Source of the DNA: an uncultured Alphaproteobacteria bacterium
GTDB taxonomy: Bacteria; Pseudomonadota; Alphaproteobacteria; MPNO01; DASWLB01
Reading direction: 5' to 3'
Length of the DNA: 64,000 bases
NCBI GenBank assembly: GCA_963775315.1
Contig: CAVZIN010000003.1
Location: 72,011-136,010 of the forward strand
Of this stretch, positions 1-58,006 are shown piece by piece (position 1 is the stretch's first letter; every line of letters starts with the position of its first letter). The position numbers and the translations under genes were made by a program. Below the pieces are notes generated by a model that saw only the letters and a list, made by a program, of their open reading frames with translations, made no database searches and was not told the DNA's origin.

Positions 1-197
1 CGTTCGCGCGCTCGAGCATGACGGGCCTTGCGCGACGGCCGAGCATGGCCCCCGGGCCGGACGTACGGACCGAGTCTCCGCCGGCCGAATGAGGGGCGCG
101 CCTGCGTTTCGGCGCGTTCGGCGCCGGCAGTCGTGCGGCGATCAGATGATTGCGGCGCCAGCGATGAAGCGTCTCGGTTGTCCTGCGGCACCAACCG

Positions 198-1121
198 CTA
201 TTCCAAGGCGCTCACCATCAGCGGTGAACTGCGCCCGGTACGAATCATGTCGAGGAAGGCGCGCAGTGCCGCCGGAGGTTGCCGACGTCCCGAATGGTAA
301 AGAAACAGACCTTCGAACGTGGGCGACCAGTCCTCGAGCACCTGGACCAGTTGACCCGAGCGAAGGAAAGGTTCGGCCAACGCCTCAATCGTATAGGCGA
401 TCCCGAGGCCGTCGACGGCGGCGCGCACGCCCAAGTCAGGATTGTTGACGGTGATCCGCCCATCGACCAGGGTTTGTCGCGACACGCCGTCCCGTTGGAG
501 CGGCCATTCGGCAATTTGACCGTCAGCATCCCGCCGGTAGCGTACACAATTGTGCTTGGAAAGGTCATCGGGGCTGCGCGGCGGTCGCCGGCGTGCGAAG
601 TACGACGGCGATCCGACCACCGCGATCCTCACCGGACCCATGACGCGCACTGCGATCATATCGGCATCGACCCGGTTCTGCGGTCCCACCCCGGCATCGA
701 AACCTTTTGCCACGATGTCGATCGGCGCTTCACCGATTTGGACCTCGAGGTGCACATCGGGATAGCTTGAGAGAAATTTATCCCAAATCGGCGCGATCAC
801 GGCCGATGCGGCCACGTGAGTGGCGTAAAGCCGCAAACGCCCGAACGGACGCTCGCGCTCCTGGTTCAGCCCCTCCAGCGCATCAGTGATCTCCGCCAAC
901 GCTGGCCGCAGGCGCTCTACAAGGCGCAGCCCTGCAACGGTAAGGGCGACGCTGCGCGTCGTACGGTGCAGCAGCCGCATCCCGAGACGCTCTTCGATCT
1001 GCCGCATCGCGTGGCTGATCGCGGAGGGGGTAACGCCCAGCCGCGCCGCCGCCGCGCGGAAGCTCAGGTGGTCCGCGACCACCACGAATGTTGCGAGATC
1101 GGCCAGTTCCCCACGCGACAT
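198..1121 (-). CDS. LysR-family transcriptional regulator
   Basis: N-terminal HTH 'MSRGELADLATFVVVADHLSFRAAAARLGVTPSAISHAMRQIEERLG' followed by a LysR substrate-binding domain. The ATG at 1121 (revcomp of cat 1119-1121) fits a LysR N-terminus. The track ORF runs to 1412, but that upstream part is Arg/Pro-rich junk. Confidence 0.85.
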   Translation of the reverse strand: MSRGELADLATFVVVADHLSFRAAAARLGVTPSAISHAMRQIEERLGMRLLHRTTRSVALTVAGLRLVERLRPALAEITDALEGLNQERERPFGRLRLYATHVAASAVIAPIWDKFLSSYPDVHLEVQIGEAPIDIVAKGFDAGVGPQNRVDADMIAVRVMGPVRIAVVGSPSYFARRRPPRSPDDLSKHNCVRYRRDADGQIAEWPLQRDGVSRQTLVDGRITVNNPDLGVRAAVDGLGIAYTIEALAEPFLRSGQLVQVLEDWSPTFEGLFLYHSGRRQPPAALRAFLDMIRTGRSSPLMVSALE

Positions 1122-1123
1122 TG

Positions 1124-1137
1124 ATGAATGTCCTTCA
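1124..1137. promoter_or_regulatory. Candidate LysR T-N11-A box (TGAATGTCCTTCA, TGAA-N5-TTCA dyad) abutting the LysR start codon, in the LysR/efflux divergent region
   Basis: Dyad read directly in the sequence. LysR regulators classically autoregulate through T-N11-A sites in the divergent promoter. Confidence 0.3.
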
Positions 1138-1585
1138 TCATCGTGAGCAACAGATAATGGATTTTCGTTGATTGTACCAAGCGCTATTTTGCCACAGAGA
1201 GAATCAGCCATGGCCTCCCATGTTGGCGGACGAGGAAAGGGTTGGATCGACTTCCATTCCGGCCGAGGCCGTCGGGCGTGAATCCGCCGGTCAGGTTTGA
1301 TGTCCGGCGGCCAAGGCCTTTGGGGGTCGGTCCCCGTTGGCGCCTGACAGCGGCCAGAGGGCGCAATGGCGACGCGCGCGAATGAACTCGGTCGCAGACG
1401 CGGCGGCCTCACCTAGGCGATGACGGTGCGTAACAAGGCACCCACGCCGGAATTTCGAGATCGGCCGCGAGCGACGCGTTCTGTCGGGCGGCATGGGTTA
1501 CTCCTTGTCATCTGTCGCGGAGGGCTCGTACCTGAGTGACAATGTGAACGTTGGTGGTTTTCACCTTCCCGGCATCGGCCCGCTG

Positions 1586-2719
1586 ATGACCTTGGCCTTC
1601 GCGGCGGCGCTCGTTGCAGGCGGTCCCCGGTTGGCCGAGGCCGCGGATGCTCCTCCGCCCGGCGTCGTGGTGGCGCCCGTCGTGGTGAAGGACGTCGCAC
1701 CGGCCACGCACTATATCGGCCATGTGCTCGCGATTCAGTCGGTGAAGCTCGTGCCACGGGTCACCGCGTATATCGACGAGGTCGCCGTGAAGCAGGGCAG
1801 CGCGGTGAAAGCCGGTCAGGTTCTGTTCCGGCTGCAGAGTACCTCCTACGAGGCAGCGCTCCAGAGCGCACAGGCCAGCTTGCAATCCGCTCGGGCGGCC
1901 TACCAGAACGCGCAGCTGGCCTACCAGCGGGCTCTGCGGCTCGGTAAAACCGGGGCGGCCGCGCAAGCGACCGTCGATCAAGCCCTGGCGACGCGAAATC
2001 AGGACCAGGCCGCGATCCTGTCGGCCCAGGCCGATGTCACCCAGGCCCAGCTGAACCTCAGCTACTGCACCATCACCGCGCCCATTGCCGGCCGTATCGG
2101 AACCGCGACCCTCACCAGGGGCAATCTCGTCACGCCGAACACCGCGGCGCTGACAACCATCAACCAGCTCGATCCGATCCGCGTGGTATTCTCGGTCAGC
2201 GACGCCGATATCGTGGATGCCGAGCAGAAGAGCGTAGAAGCGCAGAATGGCGATCTGCAAGGGTTGAAGGCGAGCCTCACGCTGCCGAACGGCAAACCCT
2301 ACGACCAAGCCGGCAGCATCGCCTTCTTCGACAACCAGGTCGATACCCAGACCGGCACGGTGAGCGTCTACGCCGACTTTGCCAATCCGCACCATCTTCT
2401 GCTGCCGGGCTCGTACGTATCGGTGCAATTGCGCAGGGCCAAGCCCCAACTGGTGCCGCTTGTCCCGGTGGCTGCGGTGCAGACGGACCAGCACGGTTCG
2501 TTCGTTCTGACGGTGGGTCGCGACAACAAGGTCAAGCAGCAGCCGGTGAAGCTCGGTCACCAGATCGCCCAGAACGACGTCGTGGAGAGCGGCCTGCGCG
2601 ACGGCGACCGCGTCATCGTCGACGGGCTTCAGAAGGTCAAGCCAGGCGAGGTGGTCAAGCCGACGACCGCGCCCTCCACGGCGGCCGCTGCCGGCCCACC
2701 GCCCGTCCAGGTCGACTGA
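1586..2719 (+). CDS. RND efflux membrane fusion protein (periplasmic adaptor, AcrA/MexA/MdtA family)
   Basis: Signal-peptide-like start 'MTLAFAAALVAGGPRLAEA', coiled-coil Q/A-rich hairpin segment, then lipoyl/beta-barrel motifs ('YCTITAPIAGRIG', 'GSYVSVQL'). The track ORF starts at an upstream ATG at 1493, which is an alternative start. Confidence 0.85.
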   Translation: MTLAFAAALVAGGPRLAEAADAPPPGVVVAPVVVKDVAPATHYIGHVLAIQSVKLVPRVTAYIDEVAVKQGSAVKAGQVLFRLQSTSYEAALQSAQASLQSARAAYQNAQLAYQRALRLGKTGAAAQATVDQALATRNQDQAAILSAQADVTQAQLNLSYCTITAPIAGRIGTATLTRGNLVTPNTAALTTINQLDPIRVVFSVSDADIVDAEQKSVEAQNGDLQGLKASLTLPNGKPYDQAGSIAFFDNQVDTQTGTVSVYADFANPHHLLLPGSYVSVQLRRAKPQLVPLVPVAAVQTDQHGSFVLTVGRDNKVKQQPVKLGHQIAQNDVVESGLRDGDRVIVDGLQKVKPGEVVKPTTAPSTAAAAGPPPVQVD

Positions 2720-2781
2720 GGCCTTTTCGTCTTGCTCTCCAGCTTTTCATCAATCGGCCCAAGTTCGCCATCGTCATCGCG

Positions 2782-5700
2782 GTGGTGATCACGCTGGCCG
2801 GGCTGCTCGCGCTCAATTCCATCCCGATTTCGCAATATCCGAACGTCACGCCGCCGAAGGTGACGATCCTGGTCAACTATCCGGGCGCCAGCGCCCAGAC
2901 GATGATCAACGAGATCGCCGAGCCCATCGAGGAGCAGGTCAACGGCGTCCCCAACATGCTGTACATGCAGAGCACCAGCTCGGGGACGGGGCATTATAAT
3001 CTGTCGGTGACTTTCGCCCTGGGCTCCGATCCCAATATCGACCAGGTCAACGTTCAGAACCGGGTTCAGGAGGCCGTAGCGCAGCTTCCGTCCGAAGTGC
3101 AGCAGGAGGGCATCGCGGTTCGCGCCGCGGCGGATACCTTCGTGCTGGCGGTGAACCTCTATTCGCCTGACAAGAAATACGACCAGCTCTTCATCTCGAA
3201 CTATGCCTACATGCATCTGCAGCAGCAGATCGCCCGCGTGGCGGGTGTCGGCGACACGCATATTTTCGGCGCGCGCGAGTACGCCATGCGGGTCTGGCTC
3301 AACCCCGCCAAGATGACTGCCCTCGGCGTGACCGTCGGCGACGTGACTTCGGCCATCCAGGCGCAGAACATCCAGGTGGCGTCCGGTCAGATCGGCGAGC
3401 CGCCGGTCAGCGGGAACCAGGCCCAGCAGCTCTCCGTGCTCGCCCCTGGAGAGTTGAGCGACCCCAAGCAGTTCAGTGACATCATTATCCGCACCAACAC
3501 CAATGGCGGGGTTCTTCGGCTCGGCGACGTCGCCAAGGTCGAGCTCGCGGCCCAGCAATACGCCAACTCTTCGGCACTGGACGGCCTGCCCTCGTCGACG
3601 GTGGTCATCTATCAGGCGCCGGGCGCCAACGCTCTTGCGGTTTCCGATAGCGTTGCGCGGCAGATGAAGGTGCTGTCGGCGCACTTCCCGCCCGGCTTGA
3701 AGTACCAGATCGTGTACAACGCCACGAACTTCGTGCGCGCCGACATCGCCGAGATCATGCGCACGCTCGTCATCACGCTTTTGCTGGTGGTCGCCGTCGT
3801 CTACGTCTTCCTGCAGGACTGGCGCGCGACGCTGATTCCGACCATCGCCATCCCCGTTTCGCTGATCGGCGTGTTCGCGGCCCTCTACGTGCTCGGCTAC
3901 TCTGCGAATACGATCGATCTTTTCGCCGTCGTCCTCGCTATCACGCTGGTCGTCGACGATGCCATCGTAGTGGTCGAGAACGTCTCCCGGCATCTGGAGG
4001 AAAACCCGGATGTGGACAGGCGGGAGGCTACCGGCGCGGCGATGCGCGAGATCACCGGCCCGGTTGTAGCGACCACCCTGATCCTCGTGGCGGTGTTCGC
4101 GCCGGTCGGTTTCATCGCCGGCATAACGGGCTCGCTATACCGGCAGTTCGCCGTCACCATCTCGGTGTCGGTGGTGATCTCCGCGATCAACGCACTGACT
4201 CTGAGCCCGGCGCTATGCGCCCTGATGCTGCGGCCGCCCTCGGGCCGCCGGATGCGCCTGTTCCGCTGGTTCAACGGGGGCTTCGAATTCACGCGTAACC
4301 GCTACACGAAAGTCGTCGGGGTCCTGTCACGAAGGCTTATCGTCACCACGATCGGCATGATGGCGGTGTTCGGCGCCACCTACTTCGTTTTCGAAGGGAC
4401 GCCAACGGCCTTCCTGCCGGCAGAGGACCAAGGATTCTTCATGCTCAACGTCCAGCTTCCCGACGGTGCGTCGCTGGGGCGGACGAGCAGCGTGGTGGAC
4501 CGGGTCGCCTCCATGCTGCGCAAGCAGCCGAGCATCGCGCACACCCTGGAAATCACGGGCTTCAGCGTTGTCTCCGGATCCCAGGAGTCGAATGGCGCCC
4601 TCGTCATCGCCATCATGAAGCCGTGGGACGAGCGGGGCGCCGACGAGTCCGTGCCCGCCGTGATACGCGCAATGAAACCGAAGCTGGACGCCATCCCCTC
4701 CGCCGATATCGTGGGGTTCAATCCGCCGGCCATTCCTGGCATCAGCACGACCGGCGGGATCAATTTCGTGTTGGAGGCGCAAAGCGGTCAGGCCTACAGC
4801 AAGCTTGCCTCGGTGGCGCGCAGCCTGATCTTTGCGGCGAACCAGAACGACGATTTGTCCTCCGTGTTCACCGCCTTTTCGGCCAACCAGCCGCAAGTGA
4901 TGGTCCACGTCAACAAGCTGAAGGCAGAGATGCTGGGCGTCAGCCCGCAGACGATCTACGAGACGCTGCAAGCCAACCTCGGCGACCAGTTCGTTAACAA
5001 TTTCAACTATCAGAATTTCGTGTTCCAGGTTCTCGTGCAGGCACAGTCGCAGTTCAGGTCCAAGGTGAGCGACATCGAAAGGCTCTATGTGCGCAGCTCC
5101 AACGGATCGATGGTGCCGCTGAAAGGGCTGATCAATGTCAGCATGATCCAGGGTGCCAACGCCCTGACGCTTTACAACTTGTTCCCGGCCGTGCTGATCA
5201 ACGGCGCCGCCGCCCAGGGCCGCAGCGACGGCCAGGCCATCAACGCGATGGAGCAGGTGGCGGCGAAACACCTGCCGCAAGGCTATGGCTACGAGTGGAC
5301 CGGCATGACCTATCAGCAAATCCAGGCCACAGGCCAGGAAGGGGCTGCCTTCCTCGCCGCAGTGGTATTTTCGTATCTCTTCCTCGCCGCCCTCTACGAA
5401 AGCTGGACCCTGCCGCTGTCGGTCATCCTGCCTGTGGCGTTCGCGATGTTCGGCGGCCTGGTGGCCCTGTACCTGCGTGGGATGGCGCTCGACATCTATG
5501 GACAGGTCGGCCTGGTCCTGCTGATCGGCCTTGCCGCGAAAAATGCCATCCTGATCGTCGAGTTCGCCAAGGACCGCCTCGAGCGGGGCGGCGTGGACGC
5601 CGTCGAGGCCGCCGAGGACGGCGCCCACACCCGTTATCGCCCCGTAATGATGACGGCGCTGGCCTTCATCATTGGCGTTGTGCCTCTCGTCATCGCCACA

Positions 5701-5886
5701 GGGGCGGGTGCCGGCGCGCGACAGTCGATCGGCACCACGGTGTTCGGCGGCATGATCATCGCAAGCTTCATCGGCGTGCTGTTCATCCCGGCGCTGTTCG
5801 TCGGGTTTCGGCACCTGTCAGAGGCCTCCTCGCGCCTGCTGGGCCGCCTTGGGGGACATCGCCACGGGCCGGATGCCGCCGAATAG
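2782..5886 (+). CDS. RND multidrug efflux permease (HAE1 family, AcrB/MexB/MdtC-like)
   Basis: 1034-aa 12-TM RND protein. The conserved N-terminal motif continues in frame upstream of the first canonical start ('...QLFINRPKFAIVIAVVITLAGLLALNSIPISQYPNV' is encoded from ~2740). The coordinates here use the first GTG, so the true start is probably upstream and non-canonical, or the sequence has an error (see findings). Confidence 0.9.
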   Translation: MVITLAGLLALNSIPISQYPNVTPPKVTILVNYPGASAQTMINEIAEPIEEQVNGVPNMLYMQSTSSGTGHYNLSVTFALGSDPNIDQVNVQNRVQEAVAQLPSEVQQEGIAVRAAADTFVLAVNLYSPDKKYDQLFISNYAYMHLQQQIARVAGVGDTHIFGAREYAMRVWLNPAKMTALGVTVGDVTSAIQAQNIQVASGQIGEPPVSGNQAQQLSVLAPGELSDPKQFSDIIIRTNTNGGVLRLGDVAKVELAAQQYANSSALDGLPSSTVVIYQAPGANALAVSDSVARQMKVLSAHFPPGLKYQIVYNATNFVRADIAEIMRTLVITLLLVVAVVYVFLQDWRATLIPTIAIPVSLIGVFAALYVLGYSANTIDLFAVVLAITLVVDDAIVVVENVSRHLEENPDVDRREATGAAMREITGPVVATTLILVAVFAPVGFIAGITGSLYRQFAVTISVSVVISAINALTLSPALCALMLRPPSGRRMRLFRWFNGGFEFTRNRYTKVVGVLSRRLIVTTIGMMAVFGATYFVFEGTPTAFLPAEDQGFFMLNVQLPDGASLGRTSSVVDRVASMLRKQPSIAHTLEITGFSVVSGSQESNGALVIAIMKPWDERGADESVPAVIRAMKPKLDAIPSADIVGFNPPAIPGISTTGGINFVLEAQSGQAYSKLASVARSLIFAANQNDDLSSVFTAFSANQPQVMVHVNKLKAEMLGVSPQTIYETLQANLGDQFVNNFNYQNFVFQVLVQAQSQFRSKVSDIERLYVRSSNGSMVPLKGLINVSMIQGANALTLYNLFPAVLINGAAAQGRSDGQAINAMEQVAAKHLPQGYGYEWTGMTYQQIQATGQEGAAFLAAVVFSYLFLAALYESWTLPLSVILPVAFAMFGGLVALYLRGMALDIYGQVGLVLLIGLAAKNAILIVEFAKDRLERGGVDAVEAAEDGAHTRYRPVMMTALAFIIGVVPLVIATGAGAGARQSIGTTVFGGMIIASFIGVLFIPALFVGFRHLSEASSRLLGRLGGHRHGPDAAE

Positions 5887-6361
5887 TCCGCGTTGAGCGC
5901 TGGGGGGCCGACGGACACCGGAACTGCCGTCGTTGAGCCATAGTTAGCGAAATGCGGGGGCATGATCGCGGGAGAGGGTGCGTGGCGTTCGGGTCGGGGC
6001 GCGCCCCGAAGCGGAAGTGCCCATGCGCGTCGGTCTCGCCGCTGAAGCCGTCACCGGGACCAAGGCATGAACGCCACGGCGGTGTTCTTCCGCGCGCTGG
6101 CCCGGTCGGAGGAAGCGAGCCAGCCGGCCGCGCTTGCCGCCACGTGGCGGAACTCGGGCGAAGTGGCGACGCCAGCGGCGCTTGTCTGCATCGAGCAGAT
6201 CGAACACGCACTCGATCGTCTAAGCGCGGAACCGTGAGGCGCCGCTTTCGTCGCCGGACCGGTGACGATCACCTTGACCATGGCAACCCGACCATTCTTC
6301 CAGGGGGTCAGTGGCCCGCCGTGCCGGCGCCACGCCCCTTGGCCGCCTTCCTGCCCGATCT

Positions 6362-6399
6362 CGATTAAAGAAATGGTGCGGCTGTGCGCTTGCGCACAG
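6362..6399 (-). terminator. Candidate rho-independent terminator on the minus strand (8-bp GC stem CTGTGCGC/GCGCACAG followed by AUUUCUUUAAU) downstream of the ATP-grasp gene
   Basis: Perfect palindrome at 6382-6399 with a U-rich tract at 6362-6372 on the minus strand. On the plus strand it is not followed by a T-tract. Confidence 0.35.
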
Positions 6400-6452
6400 A
6401 GGGCGGCGCGTCTTCGCGCCATGATCGGGTGTTTCCTCCCTTAAGCGAACTC

Positions 6453-6527
6453 GCGGTGCGGACTCCTTGGGGCCGCACCGCTTCTTTTTGCCGCGATGGC
6501 GCCCGGTCGATGTCACCCGATGTGGCT
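6453..6527 (-). repeat. Conserved intergenic element, copy 1 (hairpin CGGTGCGG-loop-CCGCACCG, then ...GCCGCGATGGCGCCCGGTCGATGTCACCCGATG)
   Basis: About 85% identical over ~70 nt to 9588..9657, in the same orientation. It contains an 8-bp stem whose loop carries AAGGAG. Confidence 0.6.
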
Positions 6528-6634
6528 TCTCGCGCAACGGGCAATCGAGTTCCGCCTATCCACTCGGCGGCGAAGCCATCCTCAAAGCTGTCCGAAAAAT
6601 ACCTTTTTCGGCAGTCTGGAGCTTCTCGCGCTCC

Positions 6635-7897
6635 TCAGTTGGTCGCTCGGCCGACAACCCGGTGTTGAACATGGCGTTGCAGCATGTTCCCGAACGCGCG
6701 AAAGATCGTGTCCATGTGTTGCCGCTTGTAAGGGAAGATCTCCGGCGGATCCAGATCGTGGACAACCATGGCGTTTCCGGCCTCGAAGACGAGAAGCCGG
6801 CCGTCTGGCATTTCGGCGCAGTCGACCGCGAAGTAGTCCAGGCGAACGCGTTCGGCAATGGCGTCGATGGCGGCTTTGTGCCGGACGGCGAAGCCGAGAT
6901 CGAACTCGGCCATGAACTTCGCCTCTTCCGCCCGTCGCTCGGCGCGAGTGAGCATCCCGGCATTGACGTAGTGGATCATCCAATCTGACGAAATCGCCAT
7001 GTGACACGGATAGGCTTGTCCATCGATAAACACGATCCGGAATTTCCGGAACAACCCATCTCGGCTTCGGTAATCGATGAACGGCGATATATAAAATTCG
7101 TCTTCAGACCTTTGCGTCAGGAAGGCAGCCACTTCCGCCGCGTCTTCGATTTTCGAGAGGCCTTCCCCGGCGTGCGAATCTCTGGGGCGCCCAATGAGGG
7201 GAAATGCGGCCCCGTCGAGGATCGAGCCAGGCAAGATTTCCCCGCGAGCGATCCGTGACAGCGTCGCGCGTCCGATACTCGCCGTCGGCGGGATCGTTAC
7301 GCCGGGCGCCTTTGCGAGCAGTACGGACACGGCGTCCCGGGTCAATCCGACGATGCGGTTTGGTGCATTGAGGACCGGGCGCTCCCAGCCCGCCAGTCTC
7401 GGCGTCAGCGCCCGCAGGACCCGTTCGTTGTTCTTGGATTCGGCGATCGTGACGAAGGCGAGGTCATGGTCCGGAAGGCGCGGCGGAAGCGGCGCGTCCT
7501 CCGTCACGTAGGCGATATGGAGCGACACGTCGAGATCGTCGAGCAGGAGCTCCAAGGGCGTGTTCGCCATGAAACTGCCAGGTACCATGAATGCCAGGAG
7601 TCGGAGGCCTTGGCGCTCGGCAGTCCGTGAGGGATGGCGGTATACGCGGCTGAGCTTCAGTGCCTCCCGCTGCAAATCGGCGCGGAGCGAGCCCTTGTCG
7701 CAAATCTGTGCGATCGTCGAGAGATCGATAAGGCAAGCCCCATCGGCCGGGTTCCGATCCCGCTGCTCGGCCAGCGACTTCCATACCGGCACCAGATCGG
7801 CTCCCGCATATGCCATTCCGAGGAGGGCCGAAAATCCGTAGGACAGCGCCGGAAAGGCGTCGGTGGACCGGTTCGGGAAAACGCTCCGCTTACTCAT
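6635..7897 (-). CDS. ATP-grasp domain protein (RimK / glutathione-synthetase-like ligase)
   Basis: C-terminal ATP-grasp signature 'FIDYRSRDGLFRKFRIVFIDGQAYPCHMAISSDWMIHYVNAG...LLVFEAGNAMVVHD'. It sits 12 nt downstream of the decarboxylase stop with an AAGG SD, so the two are co-transcribed. Confidence 0.75.
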   Translation of the reverse strand: MSKRSVFPNRSTDAFPALSYGFSALLGMAYAGADLVPVWKSLAEQRDRNPADGACLIDLSTIAQICDKGSLRADLQREALKLSRVYRHPSRTAERQGLRLLAFMVPGSFMANTPLELLLDDLDVSLHIAYVTEDAPLPPRLPDHDLAFVTIAESKNNERVLRALTPRLAGWERPVLNAPNRIVGLTRDAVSVLLAKAPGVTIPPTASIGRATLSRIARGEILPGSILDGAAFPLIGRPRDSHAGEGLSKIEDAAEVAAFLTQRSEDEFYISPFIDYRSRDGLFRKFRIVFIDGQAYPCHMAISSDWMIHYVNAGMLTRAERRAEEAKFMAEFDLGFAVRHKAAIDAIAERVRLDYFAVDCAEMPDGRLLVFEAGNAMVVHDLDPPEIFPYKRQHMDTIFRAFGNMLQRHVQHRVVGRATN

Positions 7898-7909
7898 GCT
7901 TCTGCCTTG

Positions 7910-9373
7910 CTACGCTACTTTTCTGGGCGCCCGCGCCCGGCCGAGCGCCACCACGCGATCGACCAGCATGTCGACGTCGCGCTGGTCGGTGCGATGGTTG
8001 ACGATCGCCGCGCGGATTGCGAGGGATGCGCCGATCCGCGTCGTCGACGGGGCACAAAGTCCCAATTCCTGGAGTTCAACTACGATTTCCGAATTGACCC
8101 GGTCGGGATCGAGTGCGCGGTATCGGAAGCACACGATGTTGAGCTGGACGGGAGCAAGCAGCTCGAGCTCGGGGGTGGCAACGATCCGGCTTTCGAGATG
8201 GCGCGCCAGGGCGCACGTCCGCGACATCGCGGCGCCCAGCGCTTCGGTCCCGTAGACCTTGAGCGTGAACCATGTCTTCAGCGCGCGGAAGCCGCGGGAA
8301 AGGTCGGGTCCCAGGTCGCACGGCCAGGGCGATCCGGCAGCGAGCCCTCGGCACTCGCGTTGCAAATAGCTGGCCGGTGAAGCGAAGGCTTTTTGGTGCA
8401 GCTCGCCGTCGCGCACCAATATGAAGCCCGCGTCGTATGGCACCTGTGCCCATTTGTGGAAATCGAGCGCGATCGAGTCGGCACGCTGGATGCCGTCGAG
8501 CCTCGGCGCAAGGTCAGGGGCCATTATCGCGACGGCGCCAATCGCACCGTCGACGTGGAACCACAGCTTGTTGCGTTCGGCAATCGTCGCCAATGCCGAG
8601 AGATCGTCGAACGCACCGATATCGACGGTTCCTGCCGTCCCGACGATCAGGAAGGGAGTGAAGCCTTCCTTGCGGTCGCGATCGATTGCAGCCGACAGCG
8701 CGTCGATGTCGATCTGGTGATGATCATTGATCGGAATGACGCGAAGGGCGGCCGTGCCGAAGCCGGAAGCGTCCATGGCCTGCGCGATGCATCCATGCGC
8801 CGCAGCGGAAGTGTAAGCGACCAGCCGCGTGGCGCGGGAGGCGAGCCCGTCCTGCCGCACTTCCGCTCCCAACTCCCTGGTGCGGGCGATCAAGACGCCG
8901 ATCAGGTTCGCCATCGACGAGCCGGTGACGAATATGCCGCTTGCTGCGCTCGGGAACGCAAAGAGCTGGCTCAGCCAGCGGACCACCGAACGCTCCACCT
9001 CGATCGGGATGTGGTCGCGCCCTCCGAGATTCGCGTTGAGGCCGGCGGCCAGCATTTCGGCCAGCATGCCAACGACGTTGCCGCCGCCATGCACCCAGCC
9101 CATGAACCCCGGATGGGAATTGCCCGTGGCGTAGGGAAGGACATAGCGCATGAACTCGTGATGCACCTCCGCCAGGTCGGTCGGATGAACCGGCACCGGC
9201 TCATGGAAGTGCGCGCGAACGTTCTCCGGGATCGGCTGCCAGACGGGACGGTCCCGGAGATGCTCGACGTAATCGAGGATGTCGTCGAGCATGCGATGCC
9301 CCTGTGACCGGAGCTGCGCCCAATCGGACGGATCGAGGCCGACGGCGGGGTGGGGCGGCGAGTGATTTTTCAT
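7910..9373 (-). CDS. Pyridoxal-phosphate-dependent group II amino-acid decarboxylase (DDC/GAD/CSAD family)
   Basis: 'SIALDFHKWAQVPYDAGF' PLP-lysine motif (xHKW) and overall group-II decarboxylase layout. ATG at 9373 ('MKNHSPP'). The track uses a TTG at 9394 ('MADTGYGM'), an alternative start. Confidence 0.85.
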   Translation of the reverse strand: MKNHSPPHPAVGLDPSDWAQLRSQGHRMLDDILDYVEHLRDRPVWQPIPENVRAHFHEPVPVHPTDLAEVHHEFMRYVLPYATGNSHPGFMGWVHGGGNVVGMLAEMLAAGLNANLGGRDHIPIEVERSVVRWLSQLFAFPSAASGIFVTGSSMANLIGVLIARTRELGAEVRQDGLASRATRLVAYTSAAAHGCIAQAMDASGFGTAALRVIPINDHHQIDIDALSAAIDRDRKEGFTPFLIVGTAGTVDIGAFDDLSALATIAERNKLWFHVDGAIGAVAIMAPDLAPRLDGIQRADSIALDFHKWAQVPYDAGFILVRDGELHQKAFASPASYLQRECRGLAAGSPWPCDLGPDLSRGFRALKTWFTLKVYGTEALGAAMSRTCALARHLESRIVATPELELLAPVQLNIVCFRYRALDPDRVNSEIVVELQELGLCAPSTTRIGASLAIRAAIVNHRTDQRDVDMLVDRVVALGRARAPRKVA

Positions 9374-9400
9374 TCCGTACCCGGTATCGGCCAAATTCGT

Positions 9401-9416
9401 TAACGGTCCTTAACCA
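9401..9416. promoter_or_regulatory. Near-palindrome GTTAAGGACCGTTAAC (as read on the minus strand), 28-43 nt upstream of the decarboxylase ATG; candidate operator
   Basis: Inverted repeat TTAAGG-ACC-GTTAA read directly; it contains a GTTAAC core. Confidence 0.25.
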
Positions 9417-9587
9417 GAAGGGCAGGGAGCGAAGAAATTTTTGCGGAGAATTTTGGAGCTCGGACAGGCGGTTTGGCCGGTGGACGCCCAGATTCGTGGC
9501 TAAATGACCTTCGGCCAATTGACCGGTGTGGCGCCCTTGAAGCGATCCATCCGGTAGGTGGACTGCTGGCCTGTAAGGGGGATGGGG

Positions 9588-9657
9588 CGGTCGGTGCGGA
9601 CCTTGGGGCCACACGCTTCTTCTTGCCGCGATGGCGCCCGCTCGACGTCACCCGATG
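9588..9657 (-). repeat. Conserved intergenic element, copy 2 (5' leader of the decarboxylase/ATP-grasp operon, overlapping the SDR 3' end)
   Basis: 'CGGTCGGTGCGGACCTTGGGGCCACACGCTTCTTCTTGCCGCGATGGCGCCCGCTCGACGTCACCCGATG'. The hairpin survives between copies through a compensating change (G-U wobble). Confidence 0.6.
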
Positions 9658-10301
9658 CTGACGTACCAGGCGCCGTTCATGTGGATGGTCTCGCCGGTGA
9701 TGTAGCGCCCGTTCGGCCCGACCAGGAAGCGCACCATCGCCGCCACCTCCTCCGCCGTGCCGGCGCGCCCCACCGGGATCGGCTTCTCGCGGAAATGCGC
9801 CGACATGCCGCCGGGCTCGGAGGGCCGCTCGAGATGGCCGGGCGCGATACAGTTGACGGTGACGCCCTGGGGCGCGAGCTCGACCGCGAGGGCGCCGGTG
9901 AAGCCGGCGAGCCCCGCTTTCGCCGCGGCGACCGCCGTGCGGTTCTTCACGCCGGCGTGACCCGAGACGCCGCCGATATTGACGATGGCGCCCGTGCCGT
10001 GGGCGAGGAGGTGGGGCAGCGCCGCGCGGGTGCAGAGGAAGGCCGCGTCGACGGTGGAAGCCTGCACCTCGCGCCACTCGGCGAACGAGGTCTCGCCGAT
10101 CGGCTTCGCGACGCGGTTGGAGATGTTGTTGACCAGCACGTCGAGCCGACCGAACGCCTCGGCCGCGGCGGCGACGAGCCCCTCCGCCGCCTCCGGCACG
10201 GTGAGGTCGGCGAGGTGCACGATGGCCTTGCCGCCCCTGGCCCGCACCTCGTCCGCCACCGCCTCGGCCGCTTCGCGCGACGTGCGCGCGTTGATCGCCA
10301 C
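9648..10301 (-). CDS. Short-chain dehydrogenase/reductase (SDR) family oxidoreductase
   Basis: SDR catalytic region (NNISN..., 'SGHAGVKNRTAVAAAKAGLAGF' with YxxxK-like S-K, 'PGHLERP'). Coordinates follow the track's GTG start. The Rossmann motif 'LTRELEGRAAIVTGSAQNLGRT' is encoded in frame upstream (to 10400) with no ATG/GTG/TTG, so the real N-terminus probably starts at a CTG at 10400 overlapping the upstream TGA, or the gene is damaged. Confidence 0.7.
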   Translation of the reverse strand: MAINARTSREAAEAVADEVRARGGKAIVHLADLTVPEAAEGLVAAAAEAFGRLDVLVNNISNRVAKPIGETSFAEWREVQASTVDAAFLCTRAALPHLLAHGTGAIVNIGGVSGHAGVKNRTAVAAAKAGLAGFTGALAVELAPQGVTVNCIAPGHLERPSEPGGMSAHFREKPIPVGRAGTAEEVAAMVRFLVGPNGRYITGETIHMNGAWYVSIG

Positions 10302-10396
10302 CGAGGCGCCCGCGTCGGCCAGAGCCAGCGCGATCGTCCGGCCGAGATTCTGCGCGCTGCCGGTGACGATGGCGGCGCGGCCCTCGAGCTCGCGCG

Positions 10397-10903
10397 TCAG
10401 GCCGCCACCTCGTACTTGTCGCGCCGCATCCCCGCCAGGTTGATTCCCTCGATGCGGATCAGCCGGGTGGTGGATTCGCGCCGCGGCGAATGCAGGTCAC
10501 CCTCGTTGTAGACATGTGCGACTCCGGGGGTGAGGTCGTAGGTCCGCACCTTCGCGACCTTGCCTGGCCCGCCGCTCGCCGGCTTGGCGACGCAGCGCCA
10601 GTCGGTCATCTCGGTCACGCCTGCGGCCTGGCCGTAGATCGCCCAGCTCGGCCCGTGGTCGTGCGGGTTCGACCCGCGCGCGCCCTTGAACACGTGCGCC
10701 AGGATGCAGAAATGCAGGTCCGGATCCTCGTACAGGATCTTCCGCTCGTCCTCATTGTCGGGGCCGAGATAGGCGGCGACGAACTCGGGGTCGGCGCAGG
10801 CCTTCTCGACGTACCTGCGCACCTCCTCGCGTCCGGCCGGGCCGGGATCCTTCAAGAGCGCCTTGCGGCAATCTTGCGAGAACTGTTCCAGCGTGTAGCT
10901 CAT
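10397..10903 (-). CDS. Cupin thiol dioxygenase, cysteine-dioxygenase type I family (CDO/MDO-like)
   Basis: 'YEDPDLHFCILAHVFKGARGSNPHDHGPSWAIYGQAAG...PGVAHVYNEGDLHSP' matches the CDO 3-His cupin pattern (HDH...H). ATG at 10903 ('MSYTLEQ') has a GGAGGA SD 7 nt upstream. The track ORF's longer N-terminus is unlikely to be real. Confidence 0.8.
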   Translation of the reverse strand: MSYTLEQFSQDCRKALLKDPGPAGREEVRRYVEKACADPEFVAAYLGPDNEDERKILYEDPDLHFCILAHVFKGARGSNPHDHGPSWAIYGQAAGVTEMTDWRCVAKPASGGPGKVAKVRTYDLTPGVAHVYNEGDLHSPRRESTTRLIRIEGINLAGMRRDKYEVAA

Positions 10904-11058
10904 CGCGCTCCTCCGTCGCTTCGCATGGGCGGCAACGGCCGGAAGTCTAGCACCATCGGGCGCCTCGAACACAAGCGTGGATCGGCCGGAGCCTGGTCAC
11001 GGAACCCGCCGCCCGACAGCTCCGTTCGCCCATCGTATCGATGGCGAGGGAGAGGATC

Positions 11059-11349
11059 ATGGCCAGCCACGAGGCGCAGACGACGACCGACCACCAGACG
11101 ATCCGGCGCTGGGCCGAGGCGCGCGGCGGCAAGCCGGCGGCGGTTTCCGCGACGCACAAGGGCGACGACGCGGGCATCCTGCGGATCGATTTCGACGCGC
11201 CGGAGGAAGGGCTCGAGCCCATTTCCTGGGATGCGTTCTTCGAGAAGTTCGAGGAGAGCCGGCTCGCCCTCCTCTATCAGGACAAGACCCAGTCGGGCGA
11301 GACCAGCCGCTTCTTCAAGCTCGTCCGCCGCGACGACGCCAGCCATTAG
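11059..11349 (+). CDS. Small conserved hypothetical protein (~96 aa)
   Basis: ATG at 11059 is preceded by GGGAGAGGA. The composition is not Arg/Ala-biased: 'MASHEAQTTTDHQTIRRWAEARGGKPAAVSATHKGDDAGILRIDFDAPEEGLEPISWDAFFEKFEESRLALLYQDK...'. It converges on the MTase gene, and their stop codons overlap (TTAG). Confidence 0.55.
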   Translation: MASHEAQTTTDHQTIRRWAEARGGKPAAVSATHKGDDAGILRIDFDAPEEGLEPISWDAFFEKFEESRLALLYQDKTQSGETSRFFKLVRRDDASH

Positions 11350-12158
11350 GCCGGCGTTCGCCGCGTCCCGCCCGACCAGGCGCGGCCGGTGGCGGCGGAC
11401 CATTCCTCGACGCGGCCGAACGGGCGCGCGTCAGGATCGGAGGCACAGACATAGATCTCGTGGCCGGGCCGGGCCAGGATGCGAAAGCCGGCGGCGCGCA
11501 GCATCGCCTCGACGGCCGCCTCGTTGGCCGCCCACCACACCGTGGGGTCGCCCGCGAAGTCGCCCTCGACGAAGCTGAGCCGGGGCCAGCCGGGCGCCGC
11601 CATCGCCTGCCGGGTCTGGAACTCCAGCCGGTCAGGCGCCGGCGCGGAAGTTGGTTCGCCCGGCACCGTCAGGGTTTGGAACACCATCAGCCGCGGCGCG
11701 AGGCGCGCCATTGTGTCGAGCGCCAGCATCGGGTACCGCAGATGGTAGGCGACGCCCATGAAGAACACGAGGTCGTAGCGCGTCCGGCTGCGCGCCAGCG
11801 CGTGGATCTGGCGGCGCTGGAACCGAACCCGGCCGGCGAGCCCCATCCGCCGCGCCGCCCAGCGCGCCTGCTTCAGATAGTGGTCGTCGCAGTCGATGCC
11901 GGTGACGCGCGCGCCGCGCCTGGCCAACTCGAAGGCATAGAACCCGGCGTTGCAACCGATCTCCAGCGCGCGCCAGCCGTCGAGGTCGCCGGGCAGGTGC
12001 GGTGCGATCTCGCGCCATTTCCAGGCGGGGAAGTCGCCGAACGGGTGGTCGGGCCGCGTCTCGCGCCCGTCCGGCAAATGCAGGTTCTGGAACCACGGCC
12101 CCAGCGCGGCGATGGCGTCGCGCTCGACGGGATCGGCCCGGCGCTCGGCCACGGTCAC
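11346..12158 (-). CDS. Class I SAM-dependent methyltransferase (last gene of the glycosylation operon)
   Basis: Motif I 'LEIGCNAGFYAFELARRGARVTGIDCD' with downstream MTase fold motifs. GTG start at 12158 overlaps the upstream TGA (GTGA), and a GGAGG SD sits upstream. The track ORF's long N-terminal extension is Arg/Ala junk. Confidence 0.85.
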   Translation of the reverse strand: MTVAERRADPVERDAIAALGPWFQNLHLPDGRETRPDHPFGDFPAWKWREIAPHLPGDLDGWRALEIGCNAGFYAFELARRGARVTGIDCDDHYLKQARWAARRMGLAGRVRFQRRQIHALARSRTRYDLVFFMGVAYHLRYPMLALDTMARLAPRLMVFQTLTVPGEPTSAPAPDRLEFQTRQAMAAPGWPRLSFVEGDFAGDPTVWWAANEAAVEAMLRAAGFRILARPGHEIYVCASDPDARPFGRVEEWSAATGRAWSGGTRRTPA

Positions 12159-13240
12159 GCCTCCGCGGGGCTCGCGGCCCGGCAGGAAAGCAGCAGCGTC
12201 TCGAGCTCCGCGGCGCGGCAGGCGGCGGTGTGCTCGGCCATTACGCGCCGCCGCGCCGAGTTCGCGATGGCGTTGCGCGTCGTGTCGGGCGTGTCGCGCA
12301 GGATCGCCACCGCCTCGTCGGTGTCGCGCGCGATCAAAATGTCGCGCCCGGGCGTGAAGAACTGATCGATCCCGTCCCACCGGTCGCTGACGATCGGCAC
12401 GCCGCACGCGGCCGCCTCGAACAGCCGCACGCTCGGCGACCAGCCGGCTTCGGTCATCGCTTTCCGCGTGATGTTCAGGGTGAAGCGCTGGGCCGAGTAG
12501 AAGGCGCGGTGCGCGCCGGGCGCGACGTGCTCGATCCGCTCGACGTTCGCCGGCCACTGGATGTCGGCCGGGTATTGCGGGCCGCCGACGACGAAGCGCG
12601 CGTCGGCCATCTCGCCCGCCGGGCCGAGCAGCAGCGCGTCGAGACCCGGCTGGCGGTCGTCGCTGTAGGTACCGAGATAGCCGAGCAGCCAGCGGCGATC
12701 GACGCGCTCCGGGTAATGCAGCTCGGGATCGACGGCGCAGTAGAGCGCCGCAGCGCGCCTGGCGCCGAACCTTCGCTCGATGCGGGCGAGCATCGGACCG
12801 CCGGTGAAGGAGAGGTAGAGATCGAAGCGCGGCACCAGCGCGCGAGAGAGATAGGCGCAGTCGCCGGTCTCCAGCGCCGCCACCGTGATCGGCGTGTCGA
12901 TATCGTAGAATGCGGTTGCCCCGCGCGTCGTATCGCACACCCAGCCCGCCACTGCGATCCCGTCCGGCACGTAGGAGCCGACGATCACCGCGGCCGCCTC
13001 GCGCACCAAGGCCGAGAATCGGTCGCGAAGCTCCTCGGTCGAGCCGTAGAGGTGCGTTCGCCCATAGGGCGGGTCGGGCAGGTCGCGGTTCGCTGCGTAC
13101 CATTCGACATCGCGCTCGAGGAACGTCACCTCGTGGCCGCGCCGGACAAGCTCGCGCACCAGCCCGCGATAGGTGGTCGCGTGCCCGTTGCCCCAGGACG
13201 AGGTGATCGAGAGCCCGCAGATGACGATGCCGAGACTCAT
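12155..13240 (-). CDS. CgeB-like glycosyltransferase (DUF3880 / Glyco_trans_1_2 type), paralog C
   Basis: 'MSLGIVICGLSITSSWGNGHATTYRGLVREL...' N-terminal motif and a C-terminal GT-B half ('FEAAACGVPIVSD'). 361 aa. Its ATG overlaps the upstream stop (ATGA). Confidence 0.85.
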   Translation of the reverse strand: MSLGIVICGLSITSSWGNGHATTYRGLVRELVRRGHEVTFLERDVEWYAANRDLPDPPYGRTHLYGSTEELRDRFSALVREAAAVIVGSYVPDGIAVAGWVCDTTRGATAFYDIDTPITVAALETGDCAYLSRALVPRFDLYLSFTGGPMLARIERRFGARRAAALYCAVDPELHYPERVDRRWLLGYLGTYSDDRQPGLDALLLGPAGEMADARFVVGGPQYPADIQWPANVERIEHVAPGAHRAFYSAQRFTLNITRKAMTEAGWSPSVRLFEAAACGVPIVSDRWDGIDQFFTPGRDILIARDTDEAVAILRDTPDTTRNAIANSARRRVMAEHTAACRAAELETLLLSCRAASPAEA

Positions 13241-14322
13241 TCGGCCGCCGATATTTCGGCCTGGCCGTAGAGCAGCGCCTCGACCAGCGCCGCGCGCTGC
13301 GCATAGGTGTGGTGGGCGAGGACGCGGGCGCGGGCCGCGCGGCCGATCTCGGCGGCGGCCTGCATGGTGGTGCGGCCCAGATGCGCGGCGACGTCGGCGC
13401 CGTGGGCGGCGACCAAAATCTCGCGTCCCGGCTCGAGGAACGTCTCGATCCCCTCCCACGCGTCGGAGATCAGGCAGGCGCCGGCGCCCGCCGCCTCGAA
13501 CACGCGCGTCGCGGGCGAGAAGCCGAACCGGGCCATCAACTCGCGGCTGATGTTGAGGACGCAGCGCGCCGAGCAGTTGATGACGTTGTGGTCGCGGGTG
13601 AAGACGTGGCCGATGGCGCGTACGTTGGGTGGCACCTCGGCGCCCGGCCAGCCGTTCCCGCCCAGAAGAATGCGGTCCTCCGGTCGGCGGCGCGCCGCTT
13701 CGAACAGGAACGCGTCGACCCTCGCCTCGCGATCGGGCAGCCTGTTGCCGACGAAGGCGAGGTCGGCGGCGAAGCTTACCGACGGCGGAACCGGATGGTG
13801 CGTTTCTGGATCGACGGCGTTGTAGATCGGCGTGCAGGCGCGCGCGCCGAGCGCCCGATAGGCGCGGCATACCGGCTCGCCGCCGCCATAGGTCAGCACC
13901 CGGTCGAAGCGCGGGATCAACGAGCGCAGCCGGTCGTTCGGATCCGCCGCGATGGATTCCAGCGTCGCCGGCGCATCGACGTCCCAGAAGATGGCGGCCC
14001 GGTGCGGGACGCGTAGCGCGACCACCGCTGCCTCCAGCTCGGCGTCGAGCACGCCGACACCCGATGCCTTCACCACCACGTCCGCCGATGTCGCCTCGTC
14101 GAGCGCGCGTTCCATCCCGTCCGCGGTCGGCGCGTAGACCACGACGCGCGCCCAATCCGGGTCGGGCATGTCGCGATGGGCCTGACGTTCGAACGCGTCG
14201 GGCTCGTAGAACGCGATCTCGTGTCCGCGCGTGGCCAGCGCCTTCAGAAGGCCGCGATAGTAGGTGGCGGCGCCGTTCCAGTAAGCGGAGACGAGGCTCG
14301 ATCCGAAGAACGCAATCCGCAT
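13237..14322 (-). CDS. CgeB-like glycosyltransferase, paralog B
   Basis: 'MRIAFFGSSLVSAYWNGAATYYRGLLKAL...FEAAGAGACLISD'. 361 aa, with an ATGA overlap to the upstream gene. Confidence 0.85.
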   Translation of the reverse strand: MRIAFFGSSLVSAYWNGAATYYRGLLKALATRGHEIAFYEPDAFERQAHRDMPDPDWARVVVYAPTADGMERALDEATSADVVVKASGVGVLDAELEAAVVALRVPHRAAIFWDVDAPATLESIAADPNDRLRSLIPRFDRVLTYGGGEPVCRAYRALGARACTPIYNAVDPETHHPVPPSVSFAADLAFVGNRLPDREARVDAFLFEAARRRPEDRILLGGNGWPGAEVPPNVRAIGHVFTRDHNVINCSARCVLNISRELMARFGFSPATRVFEAAGAGACLISDAWEGIETFLEPGREILVAAHGADVAAHLGRTTMQAAAEIGRAARARVLAHHTYAQRAALVEALLYGQAEISAAE

Positions 14323-15461
14323 CAGACGAGGCTCCCGGCAAGTACGGGCCGTGGTTCCGGCGCGCGCCCCAGCGCATTGAGAATGTCCATCAGCTCGTCC
14401 ACCCGGTGCGCGCACGTATGGCGCGCGCGGATGGTGCGAAGGCCGTTGGCGGCGAGCTGCGCCGCGAGCGCGTCGTCGGACGCGACGGCCTTGAGGTGCG
14501 CGGTCATTTCCGCGCCGTCGCGCGCGCGGAGATAGTCTTCGTGACCGAACAGCCCCTCGGCGTCGTCCCACGGCGCGGACACCAGCGGAATGCCGCAGGC
14601 CAGCGCCTCGAACATGCGGATGGTGGGGATGCCGGGCAGGGCGCGGGCGTAGGGCCGGCGCGGCACGTGCACCGTTACCCGGTGCGCGGCGAAGGCGTCG
14701 GGCACGCGATGGTTGGCGATCCAGCCTTCGTAGCCGATGCCGTGGTGGCGCAGCAGCTCGCGCGCGTGGCGCGGGTACCGCACGCCATGCACGCGTGCGG
14801 GCAGGCCCAGCGCATGCGCCGGCTCGACCAGGAAGGTGCGCAGCTCGCGGCTCCGCTCGCCGTCGCCCCAATTGCCGATCCAAATCAGACCGGCGCGCGC
14901 TTCCGGCTTCGGCGCGCCGGCGGGATCGGGGCGGAACACCGCCGTGTCGGCGGCCTCGTGCCAGGTCCAGGCGCGGCGGCCCCAGCCGCGAGCGCGGTAG
15001 GCCTCCGCCAGCACCGCGCCGAAGGCGAGCACGCCGTCGTAATCCTCGATGCCCATGGCGTCGAGCTCGTCCGGCGCCGTGAGGGCACGGTGGTGGGTGT
15101 CGTGGAACAGCAGGCGGAAGCGGCCGCCCGCGGCGCGTCGCCGCCCGATCGCCCGTGCCAGCGCGGGGTCGGTCCATTCGTGCACGATCACAAGCTCGGC
15201 GCCGTCGAGCGCGGCGTCGAGTTCGAGCGTCTCCGAGTCGTAGAGCCACGGGCGGAGATGGGGAAAGCGCAGCTCGACATCGGCAAGCGCCGCCGGACCC
15301 TGTTCCGCCAGCAGGTGCGTCCGGCTCCACCCGTCCTCCGGCTCGAACACCGCGAGATCGTGGCCGCGCCGCATCAGCTCGCCCGCGATGCCGCGCATGA
15401 AGTGGGCGTTGCCGTGGTTCCAGTCCGAGAGGATGGAATGGCAGAAGAGCGCGATCTTCAC
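14322..15461 (-). CDS. CgeB-like glycosyltransferase, paralog A
   Basis: '(V)KIALFCHSILSDWNHGNAHFMRGIAGEL...FEALACGIPLVSA'. 379 aa, GTG start with a GTGA overlap to the upstream gene. Confidence 0.85.
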   Translation of the reverse strand: MKIALFCHSILSDWNHGNAHFMRGIAGELMRRGHDLAVFEPEDGWSRTHLLAEQGPAALADVELRFPHLRPWLYDSETLELDAALDGAELVIVHEWTDPALARAIGRRRAAGGRFRLLFHDTHHRALTAPDELDAMGIEDYDGVLAFGAVLAEAYRARGWGRRAWTWHEAADTAVFRPDPAGAPKPEARAGLIWIGNWGDGERSRELRTFLVEPAHALGLPARVHGVRYPRHARELLRHHGIGYEGWIANHRVPDAFAAHRVTVHVPRRPYARALPGIPTIRMFEALACGIPLVSAPWDDAEGLFGHEDYLRARDGAEMTAHLKAVASDDALAAQLAANGLRTIRARHTCAHRVDELMDILNALGRAPEPRPVLAGSLV

Positions 15462-20884: not shown

Positions 20885-20977
20885 TCTCTCCCCTTCCAAA
20901 ACGCGTTGGGTACAAGTTCACGGTGAACGTAAGAATGTTGCATTCGTTCCGGCCGCGCGGAACGGGCGGAGCGGATG

Positions 20978-21913: not shown

Positions 21914-22062
21914 GACTAGCCTACGCCGGCAGGGCCGGCCGGTTCCGGTTTCCGCGACGCGCGCGTTCAGGCGGCCCGCGCCGCCGGCGATTCACCGCGA
22001 ACGCATTTCCGGCCGAACGATCCGGTGCCCGCCTCGTTGACCGAAGGTAACGAAACGAGCGC

Positions 22063-23290: not shown

Positions 23291-23363
23291 CCGGAACGGA
23301 GGAAGGCGCCGGCCGTTGAGAGCCTGCGGATCATCGAGTGTCTGGCGTGGTGCGAGTGGTGGC

Positions 23364-30515: not shown

Positions 30516-30577
30516 CTGTCATCCCGGGCGCTGCGCAGCGTGAAATGGTGCGCCGCAGACGCGGGACCCATCCGGCC
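30516..30577 (+). repeat. REP-like palindromic intergenic element (TGTCATCCCGGGCGC...GCGCCGCAGAC.CGGGA.CCATC family), copy A
   Basis: About 85% identical to 31702..31765. It has an internal stem GCGGCGCAG/CTGCGCCGC. Confidence 0.6.

Positions 30578-56143: not shown

Positions 56144-58006
<1,863 letters not shown>

Follow-up and report, generated by a model that had tools for sequence, protein, structure and literature searches.

Direct repeats flanking a decarboxylase/ATP-grasp operon in an alphaproteobacterial genome: probable junction duplication of a neighboring gene tail

We analyzed a 64-kb stretch of DNA from an uncultured Alphaproteobacteria bacterium (64,000 nt of contig CAVZIN010000003.1, referred to below as the window), in which an operon of two genes, encoding a group II pyridoxal phosphate (PLP)-dependent decarboxylase and an ATP-grasp ligase, is bracketed by two copies of a hairpin-bearing sequence of 66-69 nt. 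Copy 1 lies downstream of the operon; copy 2 lies upstream of it, at the end of a short-chain dehydrogenase/reductase (SDR) gene. We consider it highly probable that the pair is a junction duplication, in which insertion of the operon duplicated the tail of the SDR gene. The more specific version of this reading, that the insertion was site-specific and that the repeats are equivalent to the att sites of integrative elements, is also favored, with less confidence. What resembles a structured RNA is more readily accounted for by an insertion that duplicated a gene tail and a terminator, and the scar of such an event is easily mistaken for a regulatory motif when raw sequence is read. The first-pass annotation of this DNA had offered three roles for the element, namely a leader RNA, a repetitive extragenic palindrome (REP) and the boundary repeats of a mobilized two-gene cassette. 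It is the third that agrees with our results: the operon is found elsewhere in a close relative without the repeats, the 3' end of the SDR gene is duplicated, and synteny breaks inside copy 2. The feature is of an ordinary kind, the junction repeats of an inserted islet, and is a new instance of it; the very small insert without a recombinase gene and the long, imperfect repeat are unusual.

The repeats and the end of the SDR gene

The two copies are direct repeats on the minus strand, spanning 6522 to 6454 (copy 1, 69 nt) and 9657 to 9592 (copy 2, 66 nt). Their alignment contains 62 identities, 4 mismatches and 3 gap positions (~90% identity over the alignment columns). The seven differences are scattered along the repeat, and the copies share an identical core of 18 nt, CGGGCGCCATCGCGGCAA. 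The local alignment score of the pair is 100, while shuffled sequences reached 18.2±2.3 with a maximum of 29. The earlier observation that two direct copies bracket the gene pair is thus real; the extents given for them (6453-6527 and 9588-9657) needed correction, and their identity is slightly higher than the ~85% that was reported.

Further copies were looked for in ~330 kb of sequence in all, comprising the window and 21 loci from other assemblies. No third copy was found in the window, either by pattern searches allowing up to 3 mismatches or with an unfiltered nhmmer profile, and there was none in the 21 loci, which include 39 kb of the close relative described below (loci L001 and L004) and 19 others. 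The search for more copies that the first-pass annotation had suggested, carried out on this scale, yielded only the two known ones. In larger collections, a 22-nt core matched twice among representative genomes of 185,579 species, both times within coding regions, and these matches were judged to be due to chance. A 27-nt core and the pattern of the SDR end both gave 0 matches in JGI metagenomes. Viral contigs were searched with the 18-mer and a pattern of the 3' half; only 18-21 nt of the core were matched in an nhmmer check, and these short matches were also judged to be chance. A BLAST search against plasmids returned nothing for copy 1 and nothing for the entire gap between 5887 and 6634.

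Copy 2 had been described as a free-standing intergenic element, but it overlaps the stop codon of the SDR gene, a point that had been missed. It begins 9 nt ahead of the TGA, within the coding part of the SDR gene, and its first ten bases (9657-9648, CATCGGGTGA) are the last three codons of the gene and its stop. The SDR protein ends in NGAWYVSIG. In a comparison of the C-termini of 120 homologues, WYVSIG or WYVSIA endings predominate among the closest ones. The SDR orthologues in L004 and in two other loci (L020 and L021) end in ATCGGGTGA, with unrelated sequence behind each. Copy 1 carries the same gene end of 11 nt (CATCGGGTGAC), and upstream of it there is nothing SDR-like. The end of the gene and the sequence behind it are present twice in the window. 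Because orthologues that lack the element have this conserved gene end as well, copy 1 must be a displaced duplicate of the SDR tail and of the ~57 nt behind it, and not an independent element.

The 5' end of the SDR gene is of some interest in its own right. The frame contains no ATG, GTG or TTG before residue ~34. Its start is probably the CTG at 10400 (10398-10400, minus strand), which shares bases with the stop codon (TGA) of the upstream gene in the sequence CCTGA. In public annotations the protein is shortened to 217 aa in the source genome and to 203 aa in the relative.

The operon and the SDR locus in a close relative

The sole close relative in the collections is the ENA metagenome assembly ERZ25039495, which is represented by two loci, L001 and L004. 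L004 contains the SDR gene, with 83% identity in protein and 84% in DNA, and carries neither the operon nor the element. Synteny between L004 and the window runs from window position 10953 down to 9635 and stops inside copy 2, 13 nt past the stop codon; the genes downstream of the SDR gene differ entirely between the two. The relative has the operon on a separate contig (L001), between PepSY and two-component-system genes. This operon is 91% identical in nucleotide sequence to the window from ~9520 to ~6615; neither a flanking repeat nor the element is present. About 130 nt upstream of it are conserved, up to approximately window position 9520, and the element is missing there as well.

The segment between the repeats of the window has three parts: flank A (9591 to ~9521), the block in common with L001 (~9520 to ~6615) and flank B (~6614 to 6523). 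Flanks A and B, as well as the gap between 5887 and 6453, have no similarity to the flanks in the relative. The identity of the operon to its counterpart (91%) is about equal to that of the core syntenic blocks (84-90%). Since the two match, the operon probably belongs to both lineages and has moved, rather than having been imported recently from afar. These comparisons document a conserved decarboxylase/ATP-grasp operon at different loci in two closely related alphaproteobacterial genomes. Distant homologues of the gene pair (~50% identity) are always adjacent and lie in unrelated neighborhoods, for example in a flagellar cluster. None of these distant homologous operons has flanking repeats; the operon of the window alone has them.

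Two other blocks of the window, 10953-21009 and 21947-24401, correspond to just 1.6 kb and 19 nt in L004. Genes of the glycosyltransferase-like, methyltransferase-like and NAD-epimerase types lie in the former (~10 kb), and the latter (2.45 kb) encodes a Na+/H+ exchanger as well as a bacterial type IB topoisomerase. Direct repeats flank neither block. As these two other insertions relative to L004 are without repeats, long duplications at insertion junctions are not the rule in this genome.

Hairpins and terminators

The hairpin of copy 1 is a perfect 9-bp GC-rich stem. On the plus strand, this stem has a 3-bp extension and is followed immediately by TTCTTTTT. The minimum free energy (MFE) of the plus-strand fold of 6445-6530 is -36 kcal/mol, and the T-run was flagged by a terminator scan. 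The hairpin and TTCTTTTT on the plus strand are a canonical Rho-independent terminator. Directly behind the hairpin, the plus strand has the T-tract TTCTTTTTG in copy 1, and TTCTTCTTG stands behind the weakened stem of copy 2. On the minus strand, there is no U-run after the hairpin of either copy. The first-pass annotation had read the hairpin on the minus strand; since the plus strand alone has a T-tract behind it, the hairpin reads as a terminator of the opposite strand.

In copy 2, the hairpin is cut from 9 to 6-7 pairs by a change from C-G to U-G, the loss of the closing pair and the deletion of one G. The MFE fold of copy 2 bypasses the hairpin on both strands, with z-scores of -0.9 (minus) and +0.3 (plus). 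The C-G to U-G substitution noted earlier is thus present, but the hairpin is not preserved across it as had been claimed; it is strong in copy 1 only. The palindromic part of the unit is confined to the central 29 of its 69 nt. The other 40 nt are non-palindromic, and the two ends of the unit are not complementary to each other.

The operon has a terminator-like hairpin of its own in flank B (6614-6588), which sits between the stop codon of the ATP-grasp gene (6635) and copy 1. Transcripts of the operon probably end ahead of copy 1. A further terminator, an 8-bp hairpin with a U-tract, had been predicted at 6362-6399; the stem is in fact 7-bp (6382-6399), its T-run starts 9 nt later, and it was not among the calls of the terminator scan.

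A model for the insertion

Genomic islands, integrative and conjugative elements (ICEs) and cis-mobilizable elements (CIMEs) that target the 3' ends of genes are flanked by direct repeats, attL and attR. CIME-type elements can lack an integrase, as in the example at the fda locus of Streptococcus thermophilus. When a circular element enters a gene tail by Campbell-type integration, the standard outcome is that the gene regains its 3' end from the proximal repeat, and the distal repeat holds the displaced original. The arrangement in the window is similar in several respects. Its direct repeats, the sole copies in the window, bracket a discrete and compositionally distinct segment. The 3' end of the target gene falls within the proximal repeat and is rebuilt by it, so that the SDR gene is intact, and the distal repeat is a displaced duplicate. 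The segment is missing from the SDR site in L004 and is located elsewhere, in L001, in the close relative. Unlike typical att-flanked elements, however, the islet has no recombinase gene inside or beside it, and it is very small, with 3.07 kb and two metabolic genes. Its target is a protein-coding tail with a non-conserved spacer, not a tRNA or another conserved gene end. Its repeats of 66-69 nt are imperfect throughout, in place of an exact core with unrelated arms.

We propose that the PLP-decarboxylase/ATP-grasp operon was inserted into the tail of the SDR gene together with a promoter region and a terminator of its own. The duplicated unit would be native chromosome, consisting of the last three SDR codons, the stop and ~57 nt of a convergent intergenic spacer, and the spacer would bear the plus-strand Rho-independent terminator. 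The likeliest route would be a Campbell-type recombination between the chromosomal site and a circular islet carrying a look-alike of that site, with the 18-nt identical core as the candidate crossover region. The left part of copy 2 would then stem from the chromosome and its right part from the element, with the opposite arrangement in copy 1. Copy 2 would adjoin the body of the SDR gene, whose reading frame and stop would be preserved. Copy 1 would be the original gene end, displaced and still tied to the good terminator and to any plus-strand transcript served by it. The left arm contains one informative site, where copy 2 reads GAGCGG as in the relative and copy 1 does not. Together with the intact terminator in copy 1, which is continuous with the DNA farther downstream, this site weakly suggests the arrangement attL = B-core-P and attR = P-core-B. 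From this pattern we infer a circular intermediate, a crossover point and a recombinase acting in trans. The direct repeats could recombine again, which would excise the islet, and the junction pair gives a concrete handle for excision searches.

Several points weigh against this reading. No integrase, transposase or other recombinase was found in the 3.07 kb or among the window open reading frames (ORFs) that were scanned; the check for integrase and transposase domains took in 20 further ORFs of the window. An empty site with a single repeat was not seen in the one related genome available, and with one relative the post-stop part of the repeat is not demonstrably ancestral. The seven scattered differences between the copies fit divergence after a duplication as well as they fit a mosaic of attB and attP. 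An attP-like site with a likeness over 66 nt to a poorly conserved spacer needs a prior history at that place. In addition, the left flank of the insert, with RND efflux genes and a LysR regulator, also has a low GC content at third codon positions (GC3); the true island could be larger than 3.07 kb, with the SDR tail as its edge.

A bolder extension of the site-specific model is that tiny metabolic islets, which lack a recombinase and are moved in trans, use the 66-69-nt unit as a working site of recombination. We regard this as doubtful. If it were true, the target would be the tail of a housekeeping gene and its terminator, rebuilt on entry, the changed location of the operon between close relatives would be explained, and the recombinase could recognize the hairpin as one part of its site.

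Alternative explanations

A serious rival, to which we give a modest chance, is that the insertion was not site-specific. Staggered breaks ~69 nt apart at the SDR tail and the terminator hairpin would have been filled in while the operon was captured by end-joining or replication-based repair, or a small tandem duplication would have been split later; the repeats would then be passive scars. This explanation agrees with the failure to find a recombinase in or beside the insert, with the absence of terminal inverted repeats at the ends of the insert, and with flanks A and B, which have no counterpart in the relative. The scattered differences between the copies are what neutral divergence is expected to produce. 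However, a repeat that starts 9 nt before the stop leaves the native C-terminus of the SDR protein intact, which is typical of site-specific integration at 3' ends. The asymmetry between a good terminator in one copy and a degraded one in the other is allowed by passive duplication but not predicted by it, and a target duplication of ~70 nt is unusual for every known insertion route.

The other explanations take the unit to be an element in its own right. A dispersed intergenic repeat family, either similar to REPs and bacterial interspersed mosaic elements (BIMEs) or a repeated terminator module, could flank the operon by accident. The unit is short, GC-rich, hairpin-bearing and placed between genes, as are such repeats and miniature inverted-repeat transposable elements (MITEs). 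The window has a genuine MITE-like palindromic repeat, so families of this kind exist in the organism, and our copy counts for the source genome are confined to its 64-kb window. Nevertheless, such a family is unlikely. There are two copies in 64 kb, both precisely at the ends of the operon and at insertion junctions only, with none in L001 and L004 or in the 19 other loci, and its core gave only short, chance-type matches in the genome, metagenome and viral collections. The unit takes in 10-11 nt of the conserved coding sequence of its neighbor, and most of it is non-palindromic (29 of 69 nt are palindromic), whereas the real MITE-like repeat of the window looks quite different. The REP role proposed at first pass is thus not supported, given the SDR coding sequence in the unit, the lack of end-to-end palindromy and the presence of only two, cassette-flanking copies in ~330 kb. 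A cis-acting RNA on the minus strand, with copy 2 as a leader or riboswitch-like element and copy 1 as an element of the 3' untranslated region, or with both as a signal for processing or stability behind genes, seems even less probable. Both copies are oriented in the sense of the flanking genes, the lone substitution in the stem makes a U-G pair if the minus strand is read but a C·A mismatch if the plus strand is, and there is no terminator between the SDR and decarboxylase genes, so copy 2 may be transcribed. On the other hand, the element is missing upstream of the L001 operon (91% identical) and from four more distant operons, and the unit starts within a coding sequence. The fold z-scores of the copies are unremarkable (-1.6 and -0.9), and the operon's own terminator-like hairpin precedes copy 1. 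At gathering thresholds, Rfam returned nothing in the whole window apart from a thiamine pyrophosphate (TPP) riboswitch away from the repeats. In a relaxed Rfam search, copy 2 was without matches, and those at copy 1 were confined to sub-threshold models of plus-strand small RNAs (sRNAs) that use the hairpin as a terminator. Compensatory changes were found in 0 of the 9 pairs of the hairpin, where one pair had a one-sided change, one was lost and one was gapped, in a comparison of two sequences that has minimal power. The first-pass annotation could match no known riboswitch family, and Rfam likewise had no match for the element; its proposed leader RNA is at odds with the L001 operon, which lacks the element, with the lack of an Rfam family and with the degraded hairpin of copy 2, and the covariation that it had suggested looking for was seen in no pair. 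Least plausible of all, in our judgment, is an attC site of the kind found in integrons, or a different hairpin site for single-stranded recombination, that marks gene cassettes in an array. A hairpin-bearing direct repeat does follow each would-be cassette, copy 2 behind the SDR gene and copy 1 behind the decarboxylase and ATP-grasp genes, and one of the repeats extends over the end of an ORF, which is common among attC sites. However, no IntI or attI and no integrase gene were found in the window; the SDR gene and the gene upstream of it are syntenic core genes in the relative and not a cassette; and the operon has a conserved promoter region of its own. Inverted core sites are absent from the repeats: regular-expression searches of both strands of both copies with 15 nt on either side gave no RYYYAAC or GTTRRRY. 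Dyad symmetry across the site is also missing, as pairing is confined to the central 29 nt.

The putative inserted segment and its genes

We return to the segment that was probably inserted at the SDR tail; the coordinates of its genes and of the features around it are listed in Table 1. Its GC content is 0.63, compared with 0.70-0.72 in the core, and its GC3 is 0.74-0.79, compared with 0.85-0.95 for core genes. No terminal inverted repeats were found at its ends.

Table 1. Features at and around the decarboxylase/ATP-grasp operon (window coordinates)
Feature	Position	Strand	Basis or content
SDR (FabG-like) gene with duplicated 3' end	9648..10400	-	Pfam and NCBIfam matches, frame analysis
Copy 2, attL-like junction	9592..9657	-	First 10 nt are the SDR end; remainder is post-stop spacer with weakened hairpin
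Putative inserted segment between the repeats, 3.07 kb	6523..9591	-	Flank A, block common with L001, flank B
Group II PLP-dependent decarboxylase, operon gene 1	7910..9373	-	PF00282, E = 7.8e-69
ATP-grasp ligase (LysX/ArgX/RimK/Ddl-like fold), operon gene 2	6635..7897	-	Structure model
Terminator-like A/U-rich hairpin of the operon, in flank B	6588..6614	-	CTGCCGAAAAAGGTATTTTTCGGACAG, then CTTTG; fold of 6528-6640
Copy 1, attR-like junction	6454..6522	-	Displaced SDR-end duplicate CATCGGGTGAC, spacer, strong hairpin
Intrinsic terminator in copy 1	6453..6490	+	Stem GCGGTGCGG/CCGCACCGC (6453-6481), then TTCTTTTT (6482-6489)
Candidate MmgR/suhB-like sRNA (RF00519)	6411..6496	+	Copy 1 hairpin as terminator; below Rfam threshold

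The NCBIfam matches to the decarboxylase are all under their cut-offs. Its start is likely the ATG at 9373, and the listed ORF begins at a TTG at 9394. The ATP-grasp gene has no sequence match in Pfam, NCBIfam or PDB. Its AlphaFold model has a pLDDT of 86.6, and Foldseek matched it to LysX/ArgX, RimK and Ddl (D-Ala-D-Ala ligases) at E ~1e-11; the ATP-grasp label is confirmed by this confident predicted structure. No association of the operon with defense systems or phages was found.

A conserved dyad, GGTTAAGGACCGTTAAC, is located at 9399-9415 on the minus strand, ~25 nt upstream of the likely start of the decarboxylase gene. It falls in the leader in common with the operon of the relative, where the L001 version is GGTTAATAATCGTTAAC. 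The dyad could be an operator.

A candidate small RNA at copy 1

The plus strand at copy 1 matches the MmgR/suhB model (RF00519) with 21.8 bits, compared with a gathering score of 41, and with E = 0.022 in a search of 351 nt and 0.3 in one of 4.7 kb. The sRNAs of the MmgR/SuhB family depend on Hfq and base-pair with Shine-Dalgarno regions (PMC7143759; PMC8401924; bioRxiv 10.64898/2025.12.09.693200). The candidate contains GUUUCCUCCCU (6431-6441), 11 nt that are the exact anti-Shine-Dalgarno consensus of MmgR/suhB, with the hairpin and U-tract behind it. The Shine-Dalgarno sequence GGGAGGA that had been assigned earlier to an ORF at this place is the complement of this motif. The candidate thus resembles MmgR/SuhB (alpha-r8), an alphaproteobacterial family, in its exact anti-Shine-Dalgarno, GC-rich terminator hairpin and U-tract, and differs from it in a poor match to the first stem of the model. 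Its fold has a z-score of about -2.1. The Pxr and tfoR models also match at this site, and no homologue of the candidate was found in the loci of the relative. We consider the MmgR-like sRNA a lead and not a membership call, because the score is far under the threshold and terminators easily attract sRNA models. It is flagged here as a possible sRNA whose terminator would have been duplicated by the insertion event. GC-rich hairpins or dyads at 6382-6399 and 6405-6420 precede the candidate motif.

Other features of the window

The gap of 560 nt between 5887 and 6453 contains five ORFs without Pfam or NCBIfam matches. An ORF of 56 aa at 6067-6237 on the plus strand has coding-like GC phasing and is a gene call in the source record; no homologue was found among 1.84 billion representative proteins. 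The ORF of 123 aa that the first-pass annotation considered probably non-coding has no family match and an atypical GC-frame pattern, in line with that view.

On the far side of the gap, window positions 1-5886 are occupied by a LysR regulator and an RND efflux pair, a membrane fusion protein (MFP, 1493-2719) and a pump (2782-5886), with a GC3 of 0.77-0.82 compared with 0.85-0.95 in the core. The nearest non-self homologue of the pump is only 73% identical, and their neighborhoods are unrelated. This block may itself be acquired DNA.

The MITE-like repeat is located at 31704-31818. It is a unit of 115 nt with inverted arms of 51 nt (TGTCATCCCGGGCGC…), and a half copy of 56-61 nt is present 1.2 kb away, at 30517-30577. 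This half copy lies in a gap of the L004 alignment and may be an insertion there.

The TPP riboswitch (RF00059) is found at 55865-56018 on the plus strand with 57.1 bits, over the gathering score, directly upstream of thiC (56144-58006).

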